The translations under genes were made by a program, and so were the position numbers. A stretch of 64,000 nucleotides of DNA from Bacteroidales bacterium (GTDB taxonomy: Bacteria; Bacteroidota; Bacteroidia; Bacteroidales; UBA932): the NCBI GenBank assembly GCA_021371955.1, contig JAJFVD010000014.1, positions 20,538 to 84,537 on the forward strand, written 5' to 3'. Below, piece by piece: positions 14,547 through 42,127 of this stretch (position 1 is the stretch's first letter; every line of letters begins with the position of its first letter). The notes beneath the pieces are model-generated. The model did not search any database. It had not been told where the DNA came from and worked only from the letters and a program-made list of their open reading frames with translations.

Positions 14547-14655
14547 TTCCCCTGGGGAAATTTGTTAAGTAGCTCACAGCTTGCAATTTAAACCATTTTC
14601 CCAAAAGTAGCTATCTCATTCATTTTCTGCAAATTAACAAATTTCCCCTGGGGAA
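14547..14655. repeat. 95-bp-spaced inverted-arm element, copy 1 (TTCCCC arm type)
   Basis: TTCCCCTGGGGAAATTTGTTA ... TAACAAATTTCCCCTGGGGAA; core centres 14553/14649 (96 apart). Confidence 0.9.
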
Positions 14656-35546: not shown

Positions 35547-36965
35547 ATGGCTAAGGTAAAAAAGGGGTGGTTCTGCACATCGTGTGGCAACGAAAGTGCA
35601 AAGTGGCTGGGCAGATGTCCCGCCTGTGGAGAGTGGAATACTATGCAAGAGGAGATTATAACAAAAGACGCCTCTTCCGGCGGAGCGAGAGGGTCCGGAT
35701 TTTTTTCTTCCCGTACGTCAAAACCCGAACCTCTATCGGCAATAAAATTTTCCGAAGAGGAGCGTATTTCCCTTGGAAATGCAGAGCTTGACAGGATTCT
35801 TGGCGGCGGACTGGTGGAGGGTTCTGTTATTCTCATTGGCGGAGAACCCGGAATTGGAAAGTCTACTCTATCTCTTCAGATACCTCTTCACTGCCCCAAT
35901 CTTAAAACTCTTTATGTTTCGGGAGAGGAGAGCGCAAGGCAGATAAAACTCCGCGCACAAAGGCTTGGCGGCGACGATTCCAATTGCCTTATCCTAAGCG
36001 AAACACTGCTGGAAAACATTCTTAATCAGGCAAAGGAAACCGACCCCCAGCTTATTATAATTGACTCAATTCAAACAGTATATTCCCAGATTCTCGAAAG
36101 TTCCCCGGGTTCTGTAACCCAGGTGCGCGAATGTGCCGCAATGCTCATGAAATATGCAAAGGAGACTAATACTCCCACTATTCTCATCGGCCACATTACA
36201 AAAGACGGAAGCATAGCGGGGCCAAAGGTTCTGGAACACATAGTTGACGTTGTTCTTCAGTTTGAAGGGGATACACGGCATTCATACAGAATTCTGCGAA
36301 GTATAAAAAACAGGTTTGGGTCAACTGCCGAACTGGCCATCTTTGAGATGATAAATACCGGGCTTCGCGAAGTGAGTAACCCTTCCGAAATGCTCATCCC
36401 CATGCACGGAGAGAATCTTTCCGGGATTGCAGTTGCTGCCATGCTGGACGGAACACGGCCGTTCCTTATCGAGACTCAGGCTCTGGTGAGCACAGCCGCA
36501 TACGGAACTCCTCAGCGTTCGGCCACCGGCTTCGATGTAAGGCGCACAAACATGTTGCTTGCCGTTCTTGAAAAGAGGGCCGGATTCAAACTTTCTGTAA
36601 AAGATGTTTTTCTGAATATGGCCGGTGGCCTCAAAGTAACCGACCCTGCCTGCGACCTGGCGGTTGTATGCTCAATTCTCTCTTCCAACTTCGATGCGCC
36701 AATTTCGCAGCGATATTGCTTTGCCGCAGAGGTTGGGCTTAGCGGTGAAATTCGTCCCGTGAGTCAGGTTGAGCGGCGGATTGCCGAGGCCGAGAAACTT
36801 GGATTCGAAAAAATCTTCATCTCCTCTTTTGGCAAGCCAAACGGCTCTTCCACCAACGCTTCCCTGAGCTCTGCAAAGAATGCATCAGCAGCAAAACTTA
36901 AAAACAAAATTGAAGTAGTGGCCGTTCAGGACATCCCCGAACTTGTGAGAAAACTGTTCAAGTAA
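35547..36965 (+). CDS. radA: DNA repair protein RadA/Sms
   Basis: C4 zinc finger, GEPGIGKST, KNRFG, Lon-like C-terminal domain. Confidence 0.96.
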   Translation: MAKVKKGWFCTSCGNESAKWLGRCPACGEWNTMQEEIITKDASSGGARGSGFFSSRTSKPEPLSAIKFSEEERISLGNAELDRILGGGLVEGSVILIGGEPGIGKSTLSLQIPLHCPNLKTLYVSGEESARQIKLRAQRLGGDDSNCLILSETLLENILNQAKETDPQLIIIDSIQTVYSQILESSPGSVTQVRECAAMLMKYAKETNTPTILIGHITKDGSIAGPKVLEHIVDVVLQFEGDTRHSYRILRSIKNRFGSTAELAIFEMINTGLREVSNPSEMLIPMHGENLSGIAVAAMLDGTRPFLIETQALVSTAAYGTPQRSATGFDVRRTNMLLAVLEKRAGFKLSVKDVFLNMAGGLKVTDPACDLAVVCSILSSNFDAPISQRYCFAAEVGLSGEIRPVSQVERRIAEAEKLGFEKIFISSFGKPNGSSTNASLSSAKNASAAKLKNKIEVVAVQDIPELVRKLFK

Positions 36966-37037
36966 AATCTTCGCGGAAGTTTTTCACCTCCACGGTCACG
37001 TGTGGAGTCAGCTGTTCACCTCTTGGGCCAACCATTC

Positions 37038-37142
37038 ACCCCTGGGGTCATTTGGTACAGCACACAAAATCAACAACTTACTTAAAAAGCACTTTTTCGT
37101 AAACGGCTAATATATAGGTATTTGCCAAATGACCCCTGGGGT
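37038..37142. repeat. Inverted-arm element, copy 6
   Basis: ACCCCTGGGGTCATTTGGTA ... TGCCAAATGACCCCTGGGGT; centres 37043/37137 (94). Confidence 0.9.
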
Positions 37143-37193
37143 GCTCGGGGCCGGGGCTGGTGCTGCGGGTGGGTGCTGCGGATGGGAGGAGCA

Positions 37194-38258
37194 CTACAAG
37201 AAGAACAATGCTACCCCTCCAACACTGAGCACTGCTCCTGCGAGCTCAACCAGTGTGATTTTCTTTTTATAGAATAAAATATACGGAACGAGTATTATTA
37301 TGGGGGTTGTTGCCATAATTGTTGATGCTATTGCAGTATTTGTATACTGAACAGCCATCAGCGAAAGAGAAACCCCTACAAACGGGCCGAATATGGCACC
37401 CATAAAGGTTGCGCCCATTGCCTTTTTATCTTTGATACCGGCCCACACGGTTCCGGTCCTGCGAGTAATAAGGATTATCACGGCAAAACCAATTGCACCG
37501 GATATAATCCGCATTTGTGTTGCTGCAAATGGAATGTATGAGGCGACTTCAGATCCCTTTGCTGCAATTGAATAGTGGTTCATCCCTATTTTGCTCAGTA
37601 CAATGCCAAAGCCCTGCCCCAGCGCAGCTCCAATTCCAAGTAGAATCCCCTTTAGCGGCAGATTAAGCTGGACATTTGGCATCAGCTTACCTACAATGTT
37701 CTTTCCGCCGTTTACAACTCCGTATATGGCGCCTTTCTTCTCAACTTTCTCTTCTTCGTCTTTACTTGTTACAACAGCCATATCGCTCACTCCTGCAACT
37801 ATTGCATTATCCTCAATCTTTGACCCTCCCCTCTTTAGAACAGAAATAGCGATACCCAGAAGCGTAACCGTCATACCCACAAATCCCATTGGAGAGAGTT
37901 TTTCCCCAAGGAGGAGCCATCCGAAGAAAGCAGCAAAAGGAGGAGCAAGCGTCATTAGAAGCTGACCGAATCTTGCAGTGATGATTGTATACGAATAAAA
38001 CAGACAGAAGTCCCCAAACACAAACCCAACAAGTCCGGACAGAGACATCCATATCCAGGTGCCGGCATCTGCATTTTGAGGGATGTACGACCCTGTGGTG
38101 AAATAAAGCATTGTACCAAGAAGGAAAAAGCCGAAAAAGAGCCTTAGCAGGTTCACAACTAAAGAGCCGATTCTTTTACCGGCAAATTCAAAAAACAGAG
38201 CCGTGAAAGTCCAGGAGACCGCAACGGAGATTGCTATTAGTTCACCAAAGTTTTGCAT
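37194..38258 (-). CDS. DMT/EamA-family transporter
   Basis: Two EamA repeats of about 5 TM each, joined by a long hydrophilic linker. Confidence 0.85.
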   Translation of the reverse strand: MQNFGELIAISVAVSWTFTALFFEFAGKRIGSLVVNLLRLFFGFFLLGTMLYFTTGSYIPQNADAGTWIWMSLSGLVGFVFGDFCLFYSYTIITARFGQLLMTLAPPFAAFFGWLLLGEKLSPMGFVGMTVTLLGIAISVLKRGGSKIEDNAIVAGVSDMAVVTSKDEEEKVEKKGAIYGVVNGGKNIVGKLMPNVQLNLPLKGILLGIGAALGQGFGIVLSKIGMNHYSIAAKGSEVASYIPFAATQMRIISGAIGFAVIILITRRTGTVWAGIKDKKAMGATFMGAIFGPFVGVSLSLMAVQYTNTAIASTIMATTPIIILVPYILFYKKKITLVELAGAVLSVGGVALFFL

Positions 38259-38345
38259 TCCTATTATTTAAAGAACGCAAATGTAAGAAATAAAATGGCC
38301 ACACAGTTACACCAGACCGCACCACACTTTTTCCACCACACTGTT

Positions 38346-38453
38346 TTCCCCAGGGGAAATATGTTATAATACACACTATCAAGGCATTGTGGCTATTTCT
38401 GAAAACGCATAAACTATTGATTAACTACACTTTAACAAATTTCCCCTGGGGTA
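38346..38453. repeat. Inverted-arm element, copy 7
   Basis: TTCCCCAGGGGAAATATGTTA ... TAACAAATTTCCCCTGGGG; centres 38352/38447 (95). Confidence 0.9.
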
Positions 38454-38460
38454 GACACAC

Positions 38461-38485
38461 AAAGAGCGGCAAAATTTGCCGCTCT
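38461..38485 (-). terminator. Intrinsic terminator after DUF805
   Basis: AGAGCGGCAAA-a-TTTGCCGCTCT hairpin; short T-run on the minus strand. Confidence 0.65.
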
Positions 38486-38510
38486 CGAAATTTCATTTCC
38501 GGAAAAGATT

Positions 38511-38867
38511 TTAAACAGACTGAACAGCCTTAGGGTCAGAACCGTATTGGTTGTCTCCAGCATCTCCTTCCTTCAGGAAAAGAATCAGCAACCAGATCTG
38601 TCCGATTACCGGAATAAGAAAAAGGAGAATGTAGAATCCCGATTTGTTGATGTCGTGCAATCTTCTGAAAGTTACTGCCAGTGTAGGAATTAGTACAAAA
38701 AGAGAATACAGCCCGCCAATGAAGCTATATGTCCACATAATCCTGTCCAGTAACATGATTAGGGCAGAAAAAATTAAGTTAAAAAGCAAAAATACCCAGA
38801 ATTCGGTTCTTCTTGCGCGGCCTTCGAAGCCTGCATAGTTTCTTAAAACTTTCAAATACCACTCCAT
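38511..38867 (-). CDS. DUF805 (YhaH/YhaI-like) membrane protein
   Basis: MEWYLKVLRNYAGFEGRARRTEFW, RRLHD, GDNQYGSDP; start trimmed to ATG 38867. Confidence 0.9.
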   Translation of the reverse strand: MEWYLKVLRNYAGFEGRARRTEFWVFLLFNLIFSALIMLLDRIMWTYSFIGGLYSLFVLIPTLAVTFRRLHDINKSGFYILLFLIPVIGQIWLLILFLKEGDAGDNQYGSDPKAVQSV

Positions 38868-38925
38868 AGTTTTTAGGTTTAAGGGTTTACTCACCAAATT
38901 TAGAATATAAATACCATAATCCCAA

Positions 38926-39035
38926 GTACCCCATAGGAATATTGGTATAACATTGGAATAGCGGCGTTTATGAAACATTCTAAATACCAACAAGTGCCTT
39001 ACTCACAATACTATAACAACATTCCTATGGGGTAC
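38926..39035. repeat. Inverted-arm element, copy 8 (variant arms)
   Basis: GTACCCCATAGGAATATTGGTATA ... TATAACAACATTCCTATGGGGTAC; centres 38933/39028 (95). Confidence 0.8.
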
Positions 39036-39080
39036 GGGGGTTTGGTTTAGTCCTCCCGGACCGAAGAGTTGCTCCTCTCA

Positions 39081-39131
39081 CCCTCGTTTTCCACCTCCGT
39101 TTTCCACCCCGTTTTGCACCCCGTTTTCCCC
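39081..39131 (+). repeat. 4 tandem 12-13-bp units CCCCGTTTTCCA
   Basis: Units start at 39081, 39094, 39107 and 39119; the last runs into the copy 9 left arm. Confidence 0.8.
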
Positions 39132-39233
39132 AGGGGAAATTTGTTATTATGCTGGTATTAATGGCGTTATGAATATTTTGAAAAACAAACAAATCGCTTA
39201 TTTACTGCGTTTTAACAAATTTCCCCTGGGGAA
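39126..39233. repeat. Inverted-arm element, copy 9
   Basis: TTCCCCAGGGGAAATTTGTTA ... TAACAAATTTCCCCTGGGGAA; centres 39132/39227 (95). Confidence 0.9.
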
Positions 39234-39280
39234 AAAGCCTGCCCTGGGTGGGGGTGGGTTCGGGAGGGCCGGCTGCCGGG

Positions 39281-40582
39281 CTACAAATACTCGTCGTATG
39301 CTGCCATGTCGAGCAATCCGTGACCGGAAAGGTTGAACAGAATTACTTCGCTGCGGCCTGCTTCGCGGGCCTTGAGGGCTTCGCGGATTGTAACGGCAAT
39401 TGCATGACAGGATTCCGGTGCAGGAATTATCCCCTCGGTGCGGGCAAAAAGTAGTCCGGCATTAAAGGTTTCGGTCTGTTCCACAGCAACGCTGTTTATA
39501 AAACCATCTGCCTTAAGCTGGCTCACAAGCCTTCCACCACCGTGGTACCTAAGCCCTGCTGCGTGAATCTGATCCGGCGCAAAATCGTGGCCAAGTGTGT
39601 ACATGGGAATAAGCGGTGTCATCCCGGCGGTATCCCCAAAGTCATATTCAAGAACACCCTTTGTGAGTTTTGGACATGCGGCCGGTTCGGCAGCGATGAA
39701 TTCCACCAAAGCCTTCTTACTTCCGGCCGGAGAGGTAAACCTGTGCCTTAAGAACGGGAAGGAAATCCCGGAAAAATTTGAGCCGCCTCCAAAACAAGCA
39801 ATAATTTTGTCGGGATATTCACCTGCAAACTCCATCTGTTTTTCGGCCTCAAGCCCTATTATGGTCTGATGAAGGAGCACATGATCCAGCACGCTGCCGA
39901 GGGTATACCTTGTGTTGGGTTTTGTCACTGCCATCTCAACGGCTTCAGAAATTGCAATTCCCAAACTTCCGCGGCAACCCGGATCTTCACTTAACATTTT
40001 CCTGCCATACTCCGTAATATTTGATGGAGATGCATGAACTGCAGCACCATAGCTGTTCATTACGATTTTACGGTATGGTTTGGCTTCGTAACTCTGTTTA
40101 ACCATAAACACGTTAAGATCCATGCCGAATTGTTTGCACGCTATACTCATTGCCGAGCCCCACTGGCCCGCACCGGTCTCGGTTGTTATGTTGGTGATTC
40201 CCTGTATATGATTGTAGTACGCCTGAGGAATTGCTGAATTCAGTTTGTGGGAGCCAACCGGACTCACGCTTTCGTTCTTGAAATATATTTTTGCCGGGGT
40301 ATCCAGCGCCTTCTCCAGAGCAGTTGCCCTTACAAGAGGTGTTGGCCGGTATATCTTGTACAAATCAAGAACCTCCTCAGGGATATCGTGCCATCGCTCA
40401 GAAGAGAACTCTTGTTCCACAAGTGCTTTAGCAAAAAGACCTTCCATCTCCTGAGGAGTTACAGGTACTTTTGTTTGTGGGTTAAGAAGTGGCTTTGCCT
40501 TGTTAGGCATGTCGGCCGCGATGTTATACCATTGCTTTGGTATTTCGCTCTCCGGGAGCACGATTTTTTTGGTTCTTTTCAT
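39281..40582 (-). CDS. trpB2: Tryptophan synthase beta chain, TrpB2 type (stand-alone)
   Basis: 433 aa; KNESVSPVGSHKLN, TETGAGQWG, GGGSN, NLSGHG; no trpA adjacent. Confidence 0.92.
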   Translation of the reverse strand: MKRTKKIVLPESEIPKQWYNIAADMPNKAKPLLNPQTKVPVTPQEMEGLFAKALVEQEFSSERWHDIPEEVLDLYKIYRPTPLVRATALEKALDTPAKIYFKNESVSPVGSHKLNSAIPQAYYNHIQGITNITTETGAGQWGSAMSIACKQFGMDLNVFMVKQSYEAKPYRKIVMNSYGAAVHASPSNITEYGRKMLSEDPGCRGSLGIAISEAVEMAVTKPNTRYTLGSVLDHVLLHQTIIGLEAEKQMEFAGEYPDKIIACFGGGSNFSGISFPFLRHRFTSPAGSKKALVEFIAAEPAACPKLTKGVLEYDFGDTAGMTPLIPMYTLGHDFAPDQIHAAGLRYHGGGRLVSQLKADGFINSVAVEQTETFNAGLLFARTEGIIPAPESCHAIAVTIREALKAREAGRSEVILFNLSGHGLLDMAAYDEYL

Positions 40583-40607
40583 TTTAAAAAGATTTTAATT
40601 TGAATTT

Positions 40608-40717
40608 GCACCCCAGGGGTTTCATGGTAAAACCCTGAGATTCTTATATTTAATAATTAACCATGTTTTTCATAACATCTTGTTTTTCTTCATCTTACCA
40701 TTTGACCCCAGGGGTGC
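40608..40717. repeat. Inverted-arm element, copy 10
   Basis: GCACCCCAGGGGTTTCATGGTAA ... TTACCATTTGACCCCAGGGGTGC; centres 40615/40710 (95). Confidence 0.85.
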
Positions 40718-40772
40718 TGGCTCTCTTGTTTTTCACCACTTGAGTCAGATATCCGGTCTCTGAGGCAGGCAT

Positions 40773-40804
40773 AAAAAAAGAGTCCGATGCGTGAGCACCG
40801 GACC
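40773..40804 (-). terminator. Attenuator terminator of the trpB2 leader
   Basis: Minus strand GGTCCGGTGC-tcac-GCATCGGACT-C-TTTTTTT. Confidence 0.85.
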
Positions 40805-40839
40805 CTGTATAATATGGTTTAGTAAAATCTACCTATAAC

Positions 40840-40929
40840 CTACCTATCAATACACATACAGCTTAGCTCACAAACCGGATAAAGTCTGTGCCACCACCAT
40901 GATTGTGTATTAAGAAGTGCGCTATTCAT
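40840..40929 (-). CDS. trpL: Trp attenuator leader peptide (29 aa), absent from the ORF track
   Basis: MNSALLNTQSWWWHRLYPVCELSCMCIDR*; three consecutive TGG codons at 40899-40891. Confidence 0.85.
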   Translation of the reverse strand: MNSALLNTQSWWWHRLYPVCELSCMCIDR

Positions 40930-40933
40930 ACTG

Positions 40934-40941
40934 CAAATGTA
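40934..40941 (-). promoter_or_regulatory. Bacteroidota -7 promoter box for the trp leader
   Basis: TACATTTG on the minus strand, 4 nt before the leader ATG. Confidence 0.7.
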
Positions 40942-40991
40942 AATAAAATTTGAATCTCTGATAATTTTTTTTGTGCACCACACAGAACTTT

Positions 40992-41099
40992 TTCCTCAGG
41001 GGAAATTTGTTACTATACAGACATTCAGAACATTATACCTTTTTCAAGTAGACAGCAAGTTATTGATTAACTGCGCTTTAACAAATTTCCCCTGGGGAA
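40992..41099. repeat. Inverted-arm element, copy 11
   Basis: TTCCTCAGGGGAAATTTGTTA ... TAACAAATTTCCCCTGGGGAA; centres 40998/41093 (95). Confidence 0.9.
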
Positions 41100-42127
41100 A
41101 AACTTTGGGGGGCCGTTGCCCGCACCATTCTTTCACGGCCATTTATGTCACTCCTAAGTAGAATGTTGGAATATCCGTGCGAGGACAGCATTTCAACAGT
41201 CTCTTTGCCAAGGGATTCATTAATTTCAAGAAAGAGCAGACCTCCAGGGCGGAGTAATTCGACACCCCAGATTGCAAGTGCTTCATAAAAAATGAGCGGA
41301 TTGTTGTCCGGGACGAAAAGTGCCAAAGAGGGTTCATAATCCAGAACATTTTTATGCATCAGAGCCCTTTCCGATTCTCGTATATACGGAGGGTTGCTTA
41401 TTAAAACATCGAGAGAAGCGTGTCCGATGAGTGTCTGGCTCAGAGGTCCGGCAAGCAGATCCCCATAAAATTGCCTGGGCACGACTGAGTGTGGGCTGGA
41501 AGTTTTAGCCCCAAAAGAGGTTATATTTTTGCCACCTTTTTCGTGAGAAATATTCTTTTCCCGCCAAATCCCTGAGATGTTAATCGTTGAAACTTCAAGC
41601 GCATCCTTAGAAATATCGCACATAAACACTTCCGAACCTGGTAGTTCACATGCCAGCGAAATGCCGATGCATCCCGATCCGCATGCAGCATCAAGTATTC
41701 GCATTGGCCTGTCATTATTAAGTGCTTGACTTGTCCTGCCTAGATGGGATGATTTGTATTGTTTAGAAAGCTGTGAATTCGTTGTGTTTATCATTTCCGA
41801 GATTTCTTCAACTGTCCATCTGACCAGTTCTTCGGTTTCTGGACGGGGTATTAGGACACCCTCTTTTACAAAAAACTTATGCCCGCAAAATTCTTCAAAG
41901 CCCAGCACATACTGGAGGGGGCGGGCGGCAGCAAGCTGCCCGGCAGCACTATTCAGAAGCGATAGCTTCTCATCTGGAATTTCGCCAGAAGGCTCCACAA
42001 TATGTTCATAAGAACTCAGCCCGCAAAAGTGCTGCAATAGCCTCACGGCTATCGCCCGCCCCTCCTCTCTCGGATAAACCTTCTCGAGCACCTCTTCCGT
42101 CCTGTCTATGAACTCTTTGTAAACCAT
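41078..42127 (-). CDS. prmC: Peptide chain release factor N5-glutamine methyltransferase
   Basis: PLQYVLG, LIPRPETEEL, LDAACGSG, NPPY; stop codon lies inside element copy 11. Confidence 0.93.
   Translation of the reverse strand: MVYKEFIDRTEEVLEKVYPREEGRAIAVRLLQHFCGLSSYEHIVEPSGEIPDEKLSLLNSAAGQLAAARPLQYVLGFEEFCGHKFFVKEGVLIPRPETEELVRWTVEEISEMINTTNSQLSKQYKSSHLGRTSQALNNDRPMRILDAACGSGCIGISLACELPGSEVFMCDISKDALEVSTINISGIWREKNISHEKGGKNITSFGAKTSSPHSVVPRQFYGDLLAGPLSQTLIGHASLDVLISNPPYIRESERALMHKNVLDYEPSLALFVPDNNPLIFYEALAIWGVELLRPGGLLFLEINESLGKETVEMLSSHGYSNILLRSDINGRERMVRATAPQSFSPGEIC

Follow-up and report, generated by a model that had tools for sequence, protein, structure and literature searches.

The inverted-repeat element at positions 38926–39035 of the window (the whole 64,000-nucleotide stretch analysed here, C12:20538–84537 of a 2.5-Mb source genome, G000, with 40% GC) belongs to a REPIN-like family, of which it is a diverged and probably immobile member in single copy, and which would be propagated by a Y1/HUH transposase of the RAYT group 1 or TIRYT kind. 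The family has about 34 copies in the genome: 18 are of type A (TTTTCCCCAGGGGAAATTTGTTA), 11 of type B (CACCCCWGGGGTCATTTGGTAC) and 4 of type D (TAATCCCTCGGTTTTCGTGTTAA), and the present element is the only one of type C. Six canonical copies, with TTCCCCWGGGGAA cores 95–96 bp apart, lie in the window. The features of the type C locus are given in Table 1.

Table 1. Coordinates (window numbering) of the type C element, its parts and its surroundings
Feature	Position	Strand	Remarks
DUF805 gene	38511..38870	-	type C element lies just upstream of its promoter region
Type C hairpin element (variant)	38926..39035	.	110 bp; 104 bp core to core
Left arm GTACCCCATAGGAATATTGGTATAAC	38926..38951	+	starts GTACCC
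Left core CCCCATAGG	38929..38937	+	mini-palindrome pairs left, 2/4
Interior spacer of type C element	38952..39009	.	AT-rich
Right arm ACTATAACAACATTCCTATGGGGTAC, reverse complement GTACCCCATAGGAATGTTGTTATAGT	39010..39035	+	
Right core CCTATGGGG	39024..39032	+	
G-rich spacer, this species only	39036..39078	.	contains CCTCCCGGACC, complementary to GGTTCGGGAGG at 39257-39267
Tandem 12-13-nt units (CACCCYYGTTTTS) running into the type A copy	39079..39123	+	
Canonical type A element (TTTTCCCCAGGGGAAATTTGTTA ... TAACAAATTTCCCCTGGGGAAAA) beside type C	39124..39235	.	orthologous in G015 and G016
PLP-dependent enzyme gene (trpB2 in the initial annotation)	39281..40582	-	elements lie downstream of its stop codon

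The two type C cores mirror one another across the element, as the initial annotation had stated, and start 95 bp apart; the corresponding distance in other family copies is 94–96 bp. They are the only sites of the CCCCATAGG 9-mer in the window, for which the chance expectation is 0.29. The arms are 26 nt each and are mirrored over ~22 nt. Perfect pairing between them comprises 18 nt, namely GTA with core positions 1–12 and then T14–G16, with positions 13 and 17 unmirrored, and a repeat search of the window returned the element with arms of 38 nt and 82% complementarity. The free energy of folding as single-stranded DNA is −23.5 kcal/mol (z = −5.3), and the interior gives z = −1.87. Positions 6, 7, 12 and 13 depart from type A in both arms, position 17 does so in the left arm, and the outer flank is different as well; three of the four changes common to both arms are to the same base. 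All of the near-invariant positions of the family (C4, G8, T15 and G16) are kept, and the differences are confined to positions that vary between functional lineages. Two details of the earlier description need amending. It had the same two changes breaking the CCCC/GGGG mini-hairpin in both arms, and the mini-palindrome is indeed down to two of its four pairs, but more than two positions differ from the canonical types. It also had TGGTA retained at positions 15–19, which is so in the left arm, whereas the right arm has TGTTA, the type A form.

Type C can be placed in the family by comparing both arms of 77 elements from ~12 enzyme lineages, in a register that puts TG at positions 15–16. Positions 1–19 are 86–99% identical between the arms of one element and take two to four matched states per position across lineages; from position 20 onward, the match between arms drops to 40–50%. 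C4, G8, T15 and G16 are nearly invariant across lineages. Next to the palindrome, type C has GTAC, type A TTTT and type B CA. The mirrored CCCCATAGG/CCTATGGGG change is an instance of the family-wide matching of arms and not a local oddity. The mini-palindrome is more variable. All four core pairs are present in types A, B, E and H (the type A arm has a local stem of 6–7 bp), whereas types C and D, together with two lineages found at intact transposase genes (GCCCTATGC and GTCCAAGTC), have only two of the four. In lineages CCTCAGAGG and ACTCAGAGT it is preserved through compensated changes, so for part of the lineages the mini-palindrome does matter. Interiors, of 66 nt, fold no better than shuffled controls (mean z = −0.39; one of the 34 below −2), which narrows the ‘long duplex’ to the ~19–22-nt ends. 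The proposal that the duplex between arms matters more than the mini-hairpin is therefore supported across the family as regards the matching of arms, with the qualifications that the mini-palindrome is kept in some lineages and that the duplex is one of the ends only. Conservation concerns a pair of matching ~19-nt ends at a fixed distance rather than a long stem, and a local hairpin does not always accompany them; such ends would be explained equally well by two identical protein-binding sites or by a duplex.

The genome also contains three more inverted-repeat families, of about 130, 130 and 91 nt, at positions that include C1:46251, C10:118865, C3:73929 and C5:114825; C1:50661, C10:84485 and C5:391447; and C12:53255, C15:71241 and C16:13099.

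The link to a transposase comes from types A and B. Five PF01797 (Y1 transposase) genes are present in the genome. The Y1/HUH gene at C9:181960–182727 has complete type A elements on both sides, and each of the other four has its own unrelated flanking palindromes. The C9 protein is 251 aa long, carries NHVH and YILLNP motifs, matches PF01797 with E = 1.6e-8 and scores 57.5 bits against NF047646 (REP-associated tyrosine transposase), which is under the 80-bit equivalog cut-off; Pfam gave nothing usable for its C-terminal part. Judged by length and motifs, the enzyme fits subclass 2.1, also called RAYT group 1 or TIRYT. Homologues occur in 52 of 301 genomes of the same bacterial family (51 of 300 besides the source genome), and at the loci inspected the homologue is bracketed by its own 100–130-nt hairpin, with perfectly mirrored arms of lineage-specific sequence (e.g. 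GCCTCAGAGGAAAAGTGTCAAAC, CAGCCCTATGCTTTCATGGCCA, GTCCAAGTCATTCGTGGGATA and TAACTCAGAGTTTTTTTGCC). Types A and B were found in only four of the 52 species of the genus, the source species and the sister species represented by genomes G012, G015 and G016. The type A enzyme is carried by G000, G016 and G012 (100, 96 and 88% identity). At the syntenic locus, G015 has a type B enzyme, 59% identical, with type B elements on both sides. As different enzyme alleles occupy one locus, type B is orphaned in G000 and type A in G015. The allelic segments are C9:181810–182891 in G000 and C1:1875306–1876534 in G015 (L039), within the same outer flanks. Of the three additional inverted-repeat families, one (CACTTTGGCGCAGTTTGAGGTAA) flanks transposase homologues in relatives (L051, L052, L054 and L056), and another (ATATCTGCCATTCCAAATAGCA) adjoins the Y1 gene at C5:390022–390930. 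Readings of the element as attC-like or as Correia/NIME-like were dropped once the transposase association had been found.

A family member consists of two inverted ~19–22-nt arms 95 bp apart across an unstructured spacer, and each arm comprises a 9-nt core, a 5-nt variable linker and TGNNN. Every enzyme lineage in the bacterial family has its own arm sequence, and the two arms of an element always match. In the interpretation that we favour, the match is likely explained by a single enzyme having to recognise the two ends, probably in single-stranded, folded form. As regards mobilisation, presence/absence differences between sister species were observed. The type C copy is probably immobile, and would have arisen, or been retained, in this species only.

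The search for further copies that the initial annotation had proposed yielded none in the genome beyond this locus, nor does type C occur in any of 51 further species of the genus. When 185,579 species genomes were scanned for ACCCCATAGG-N80–92-CCTATGGGGT, unrelated inverted repeats were all that came up; a REP-like GACCCCATAGGGGTC family from a 61% GC Bacteroidales MAG, matched in the collection scan, was rejected as one of these. The Bacteroidales MAG L027 (CASFRV010000021.1, 61% GC) carries eight REP-like GTTCGACCCCTATGGGGTCG hairpins within 8 kb, with a CCCC-ATA-GGGG stem-loop, which are separate from the type A–D family. Among 241 million metagenome contigs (JGI), the sole type C match was a conspecific contig, L037, which aligns to the window over 4.5 kb at 98.7% identity and has an identical type C element at this very locus. 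A search of 5.8 billion proteins and of the genomes examined turned up no cognate type C enzyme. With neither a second copy nor a cognate enzyme in anything searched, ‘subtype’ C rests on one element.

Such a singleton could have been transposed here by a type C enzyme whose lineage is unsampled or has since been lost, for example through an allelic swap like that at the enzyme locus, the other type C copies having decayed. Orphaning has parallels in the 11 type B copies of this genome, which has no type B enzyme, and in the type A copies of G015; sister species do hold different enzyme alleles at the same locus, and all type C changes fall at positions that vary between functional lineages. 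We nevertheless consider descent from a lost lineage quite unlikely. No type C arm pair occurs elsewhere in the species genomes or in the JGI metagenome contigs, the A/B clade among the 5.8 billion proteins consists only of A-type (88–96%) and B-type (56–59%, with type B arms) enzymes with no intermediate, and the likeness of the interior to that of the neighbouring copy points to a local origin.

The comparison with the sister species shows where type C is lacking. At the orthologous site it is missing in all three: in G015 and G016 ...CCAAGTACCC is followed by two bases and then directly by the type A element, and G012 has a solo core only. By flank identity G012 is the outgroup, which makes it probable that the junction without the element is the ancestral state; if it is, this species would have gained type C along with ~90 nt on its right side. 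The GTACCC that begins the left arm pre-exists at the element-free site in the three sister species, and its complement on the right, GGGTAC, is new. The type C interior best matches that of the adjacent type A copy, at 66% identity, in the same orientation and with the same 104-nt core-to-core length. This was the top of 66 comparisons (shuffle P = 0.017), with the G015 orthologue of the neighbour tying for second; identity between true orthologues is 77–91%. The match is a moderate hint that type C derives locally, as a paralogue of its type A neighbour, and was not imported. The signal of local origin is weak (P about 0.02), which is a counterpoint to our preferred interpretation. The 40 nt to the right of type C were also considered as a duplicate of the type A right flank; the likeness was not significant (P about 0.4) and the argument was dropped.

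If the type C arms had mutated independently, the changes that they share would have a hypergeometric P of about 1e-4, and the arms must therefore share history after the divergence from type A. Divergence in place from type A would have produced four mirrored positions, against zero among orthologues, and enzyme recognition does not explain this. From the present element, it had earlier been supposed that mutations are copied between arms. As a general process, such copying is not supported by the rest of the family. At least 15 of the 77 elements have unmirrored core changes in a single arm (e.g. CCTCAGGGG at window 40994–41002, CCCCATGGG in G016 and CCCCTGTGG in G015), and seven orthologous comparisons between species gave at least eight unmirrored arm substitutions versus no mirrored ones. 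Any copying between arms must, on these counts, be rare. The suggested test of whether left arms cluster with left arms or with their own right arms makes the type C arms each other's nearest relatives, but the outcome is trivial, there being no left- or right-specific signal in positions 1–19. The centre base of the core (A/T), which had seemed mirrored in one orthologous pair, was rejected as evidence for mirroring, as it is near random in type B (A and A in 7 elements, T and T in 6, mixed in 9; hand count).

Rare one-step re-templating, descent from a lost subtype and compensatory selection are the candidates for the changes that the type C arms share. Under the first, one decayed type A or B arm, with several mutations, would have been copied onto the other in a single event, either by a template switch within the quasi-palindrome during replication or when an asymmetric transposition intermediate had the arm that it lacked rebuilt. 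The parent may have been a duplicate of the neighbouring type A copy, and the outcome would be a new, perfectly mirrored arm type in one step. This is possible, although we hold it to be unlikely. Templated copying would suit a lone copy for which very large collections yielded neither an enzyme nor relatives, an interior resembling the adjacent copy, the agreement of three of the four shared changes in their base (P about 1e-4) and a GTACCC on the left that is old at the sister empty site beside a GGGTAC on the right that is new. There is a second singleton, G000 C10:30202, which also has two mirrored changes, and asymmetric excised REPINs have been described along with the question of how their symmetry is restored (Bertels & Rainey 2011, PMC3116915). 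Against it stand the unmirrored elements and orthologue counts already given, positions 13 and 17 of type C, which copying has not made to match, the lack of significance of the supposed right-flank duplication, and the fact that no allele of intermediate form turned up. The broader idea, that new arm types may arise in one step with one arm re-templated from the other, and that type C is such a birth beside its parent and partly from the GTACCC flank, is likewise conceivable rather than probable. If true, a decayed copy would become a symmetric ‘new species’ of repeat, no longer recognised by the resident enzyme.

The third candidate is selection by the host. Type C sits between two tandem minus-strand genes and folds strongly (z = −5.3), and its hairpin might be maintained by compensatory selection as a stabiliser or terminator at the 3' end of the upstream PLP-enzyme gene, or as a structural site in the DNA. 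We regard a host function of this kind as very improbable. No terminator-like site is listed at 38926–39035 and no T-run follows the element, and an Rfam search of 36000–42000 gave sub-threshold noise only, with no match on type C. Furthermore, the sister species lack the element, the neighbouring type A copy already provides a stronger hairpin, and the interiors of the family are unstructured. A DDE-transposon MITE would be expected to leave a target-site duplication, but the type C flanks (...TCCCAA and GGGGGT...) form no direct repeat, and element-free sites have a solo core or unrelated bases there with no duplication. Divergence within a REPIN-like family is our preferred interpretation.

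Several features of the neighbouring type A copy and its surroundings are recorded here. The tandem array has one extra unit, CACCTCCGTTTTG, in the conspecific contig L037. The type A arms at 39125–39139 and 39220–39234 are each flagged as a small terminator-like hairpin on the inward-reading strand (TTTCCCCAGGGGAAA, then TTTGTTA). An outer inverted repeat brackets the orthologues of this type A copy in G015 (L010) and G016 (L008), and differs between them in a mirrored way: GTACCCGGG / CCCGGGTAC in G015 and GTACCCAGG / CTGGGTAC in G016.

The joined flanks of each of the 34 copies were compared with the sister genomes. Sites at which a copy is missing have solo cores, which are frequent, derivatives that keep the arms without the interior, or half elements. 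Solo cores with the outer flanks retained are exemplified by ATTCACCCCTGGGGTGG in G015 (at the site of window 37039–37141) and TTTTTTCCCCAGGGGAAAAAA in G016. The observations of solo cores cover the sites of window 37039–37141 and 39124–39235 (L084, L089 and L009). A canonical core is its own reverse complement, which makes the pair of cores in an element direct repeats as well, so that a collapse to a single core can occur. The solo cores seem to be products of such a collapse; alternatively, palindromes of this kind are targets for insertion. Type C cores cannot collapse as direct repeats. Interior-deleted derivatives, in which the arms abut (TTTTCCCCAGGGGAAATTTG-ACAAATTTCCCCTGGGGAAAA), were seen in G015 (L083) and G016 (L088) as orthologues of window 14547–14655 and G000 C5:55055, and half elements with one arm only also occur. 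A clean element-free site for G000 C5:111635 is found in G015 (L081), where GAAGAAG abuts ATGGTGCACC. The DNA inserted at G000 C5:111635 includes CACCCCT to the left of the TTTT arm, and several type A copies share a common left flank, GCACCCCN, and several have a right flank containing GGCAC. It may therefore be that the mobile unit, or else its target, is longer than the 112 bp.

Taken alone, type C adds another variant to the REPIN-like repeats. It is of value chiefly as a natural test case for how arm symmetry fares during sequence drift and how new repeat–enzyme pairs arise, both of which are open in the REPIN literature, given that a single copy shares derived arm changes with neither an enzyme nor sister copies to explain them. 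The family data add which arm positions may co-vary, and they show lineages that can do without the local mini-palindrome.

Three known systems invite comparison. The correction of quasi-palindromes by intramolecular template switching has reportedly been described in E. coli by Ripley and by the Lovett laboratory. It resembles what may have befallen type C in that an imperfect inverted repeat becomes a perfect one through copying of an arm, which produces mirrored changes. It differs in being a mutational mechanism and not a family of elements, and its action on type C is possible rather than established.

The closest likeness of the family is to REPINs and RAYTs: a short repeat occurs between genes as inverted doublets of constant spacing, a low-copy Y1/HUH gene is flanked by the same doublets, and there is one repeat type per enzyme. 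These systems are said to be treated also in work by Ton-Hoang from 2012. The REPINs/RAYTs (REPtrons) of Pseudomonas, E. coli and Neisseria have been described, and compensatory changes across the REPIN hairpin are reported to be common (Bertels & Rainey 2011, PMC3116915). Unlike them, the present family has no GTAG (or CGTC) tag, its unit repeat is not a long imperfect palindrome and its interior is unfolded, it has about 34 copies instead of hundreds, and its enzyme is a long form with a C-terminal extension. Type C departs further, having lost the local palindrome and having no partner copies and no cognate enzyme. Measured against a typical REPIN, it does have two inverted short repeats at a fixed spacing that can form a hairpin, but its units are not palindromic REP stem-loops (two of the four core pairs), the bases by the palindrome are GTAC in place of the GTAG/CGTC tag, and there is one copy and no population of them, though the family has ~34. 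A cognate flanked Y1 gene exists for type A (at C9) and type B (in G015), but not for type C.

The enzyme itself leads to the TIRYTs and their TIRtrons (Di Nocera et al. 2013, PMC3733652), which are equivalent to TnpA-Y1 subclass 2.1 or RAYT group 1 (Quentin et al. 2018, PMC6006769). The C9 enzyme resembles these in its length of about 250 aa, its NHVH and Y-x-x-L-N-P (YILLNP) motifs, its extra C-terminal region and the location of its gene between inverted repeats. The published TIR motif, GGGGWSAS, is matched at 7/8 positions by type B GGGGTCAT, at 6/8 by type A GGGGAAAT and at 3/8 by type C TAGGAATA. The difference is that each gene-flanking ‘TIR’ here is a complete 110-nt hairpin doublet of a kind dispersed in the genome. 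No REP-like sequences were found next to subclass 2.1 genes when these were surveyed (Quentin et al. 2018, PMC6006769). The C9 locus has the long Y1/HUH protein with inverted repeats on either side, and the data as a whole document REPIN-like doublets at enzymes that fit subclass 2.1/TIRYT by motifs and length only, in a class surveyed without REP-like partners.
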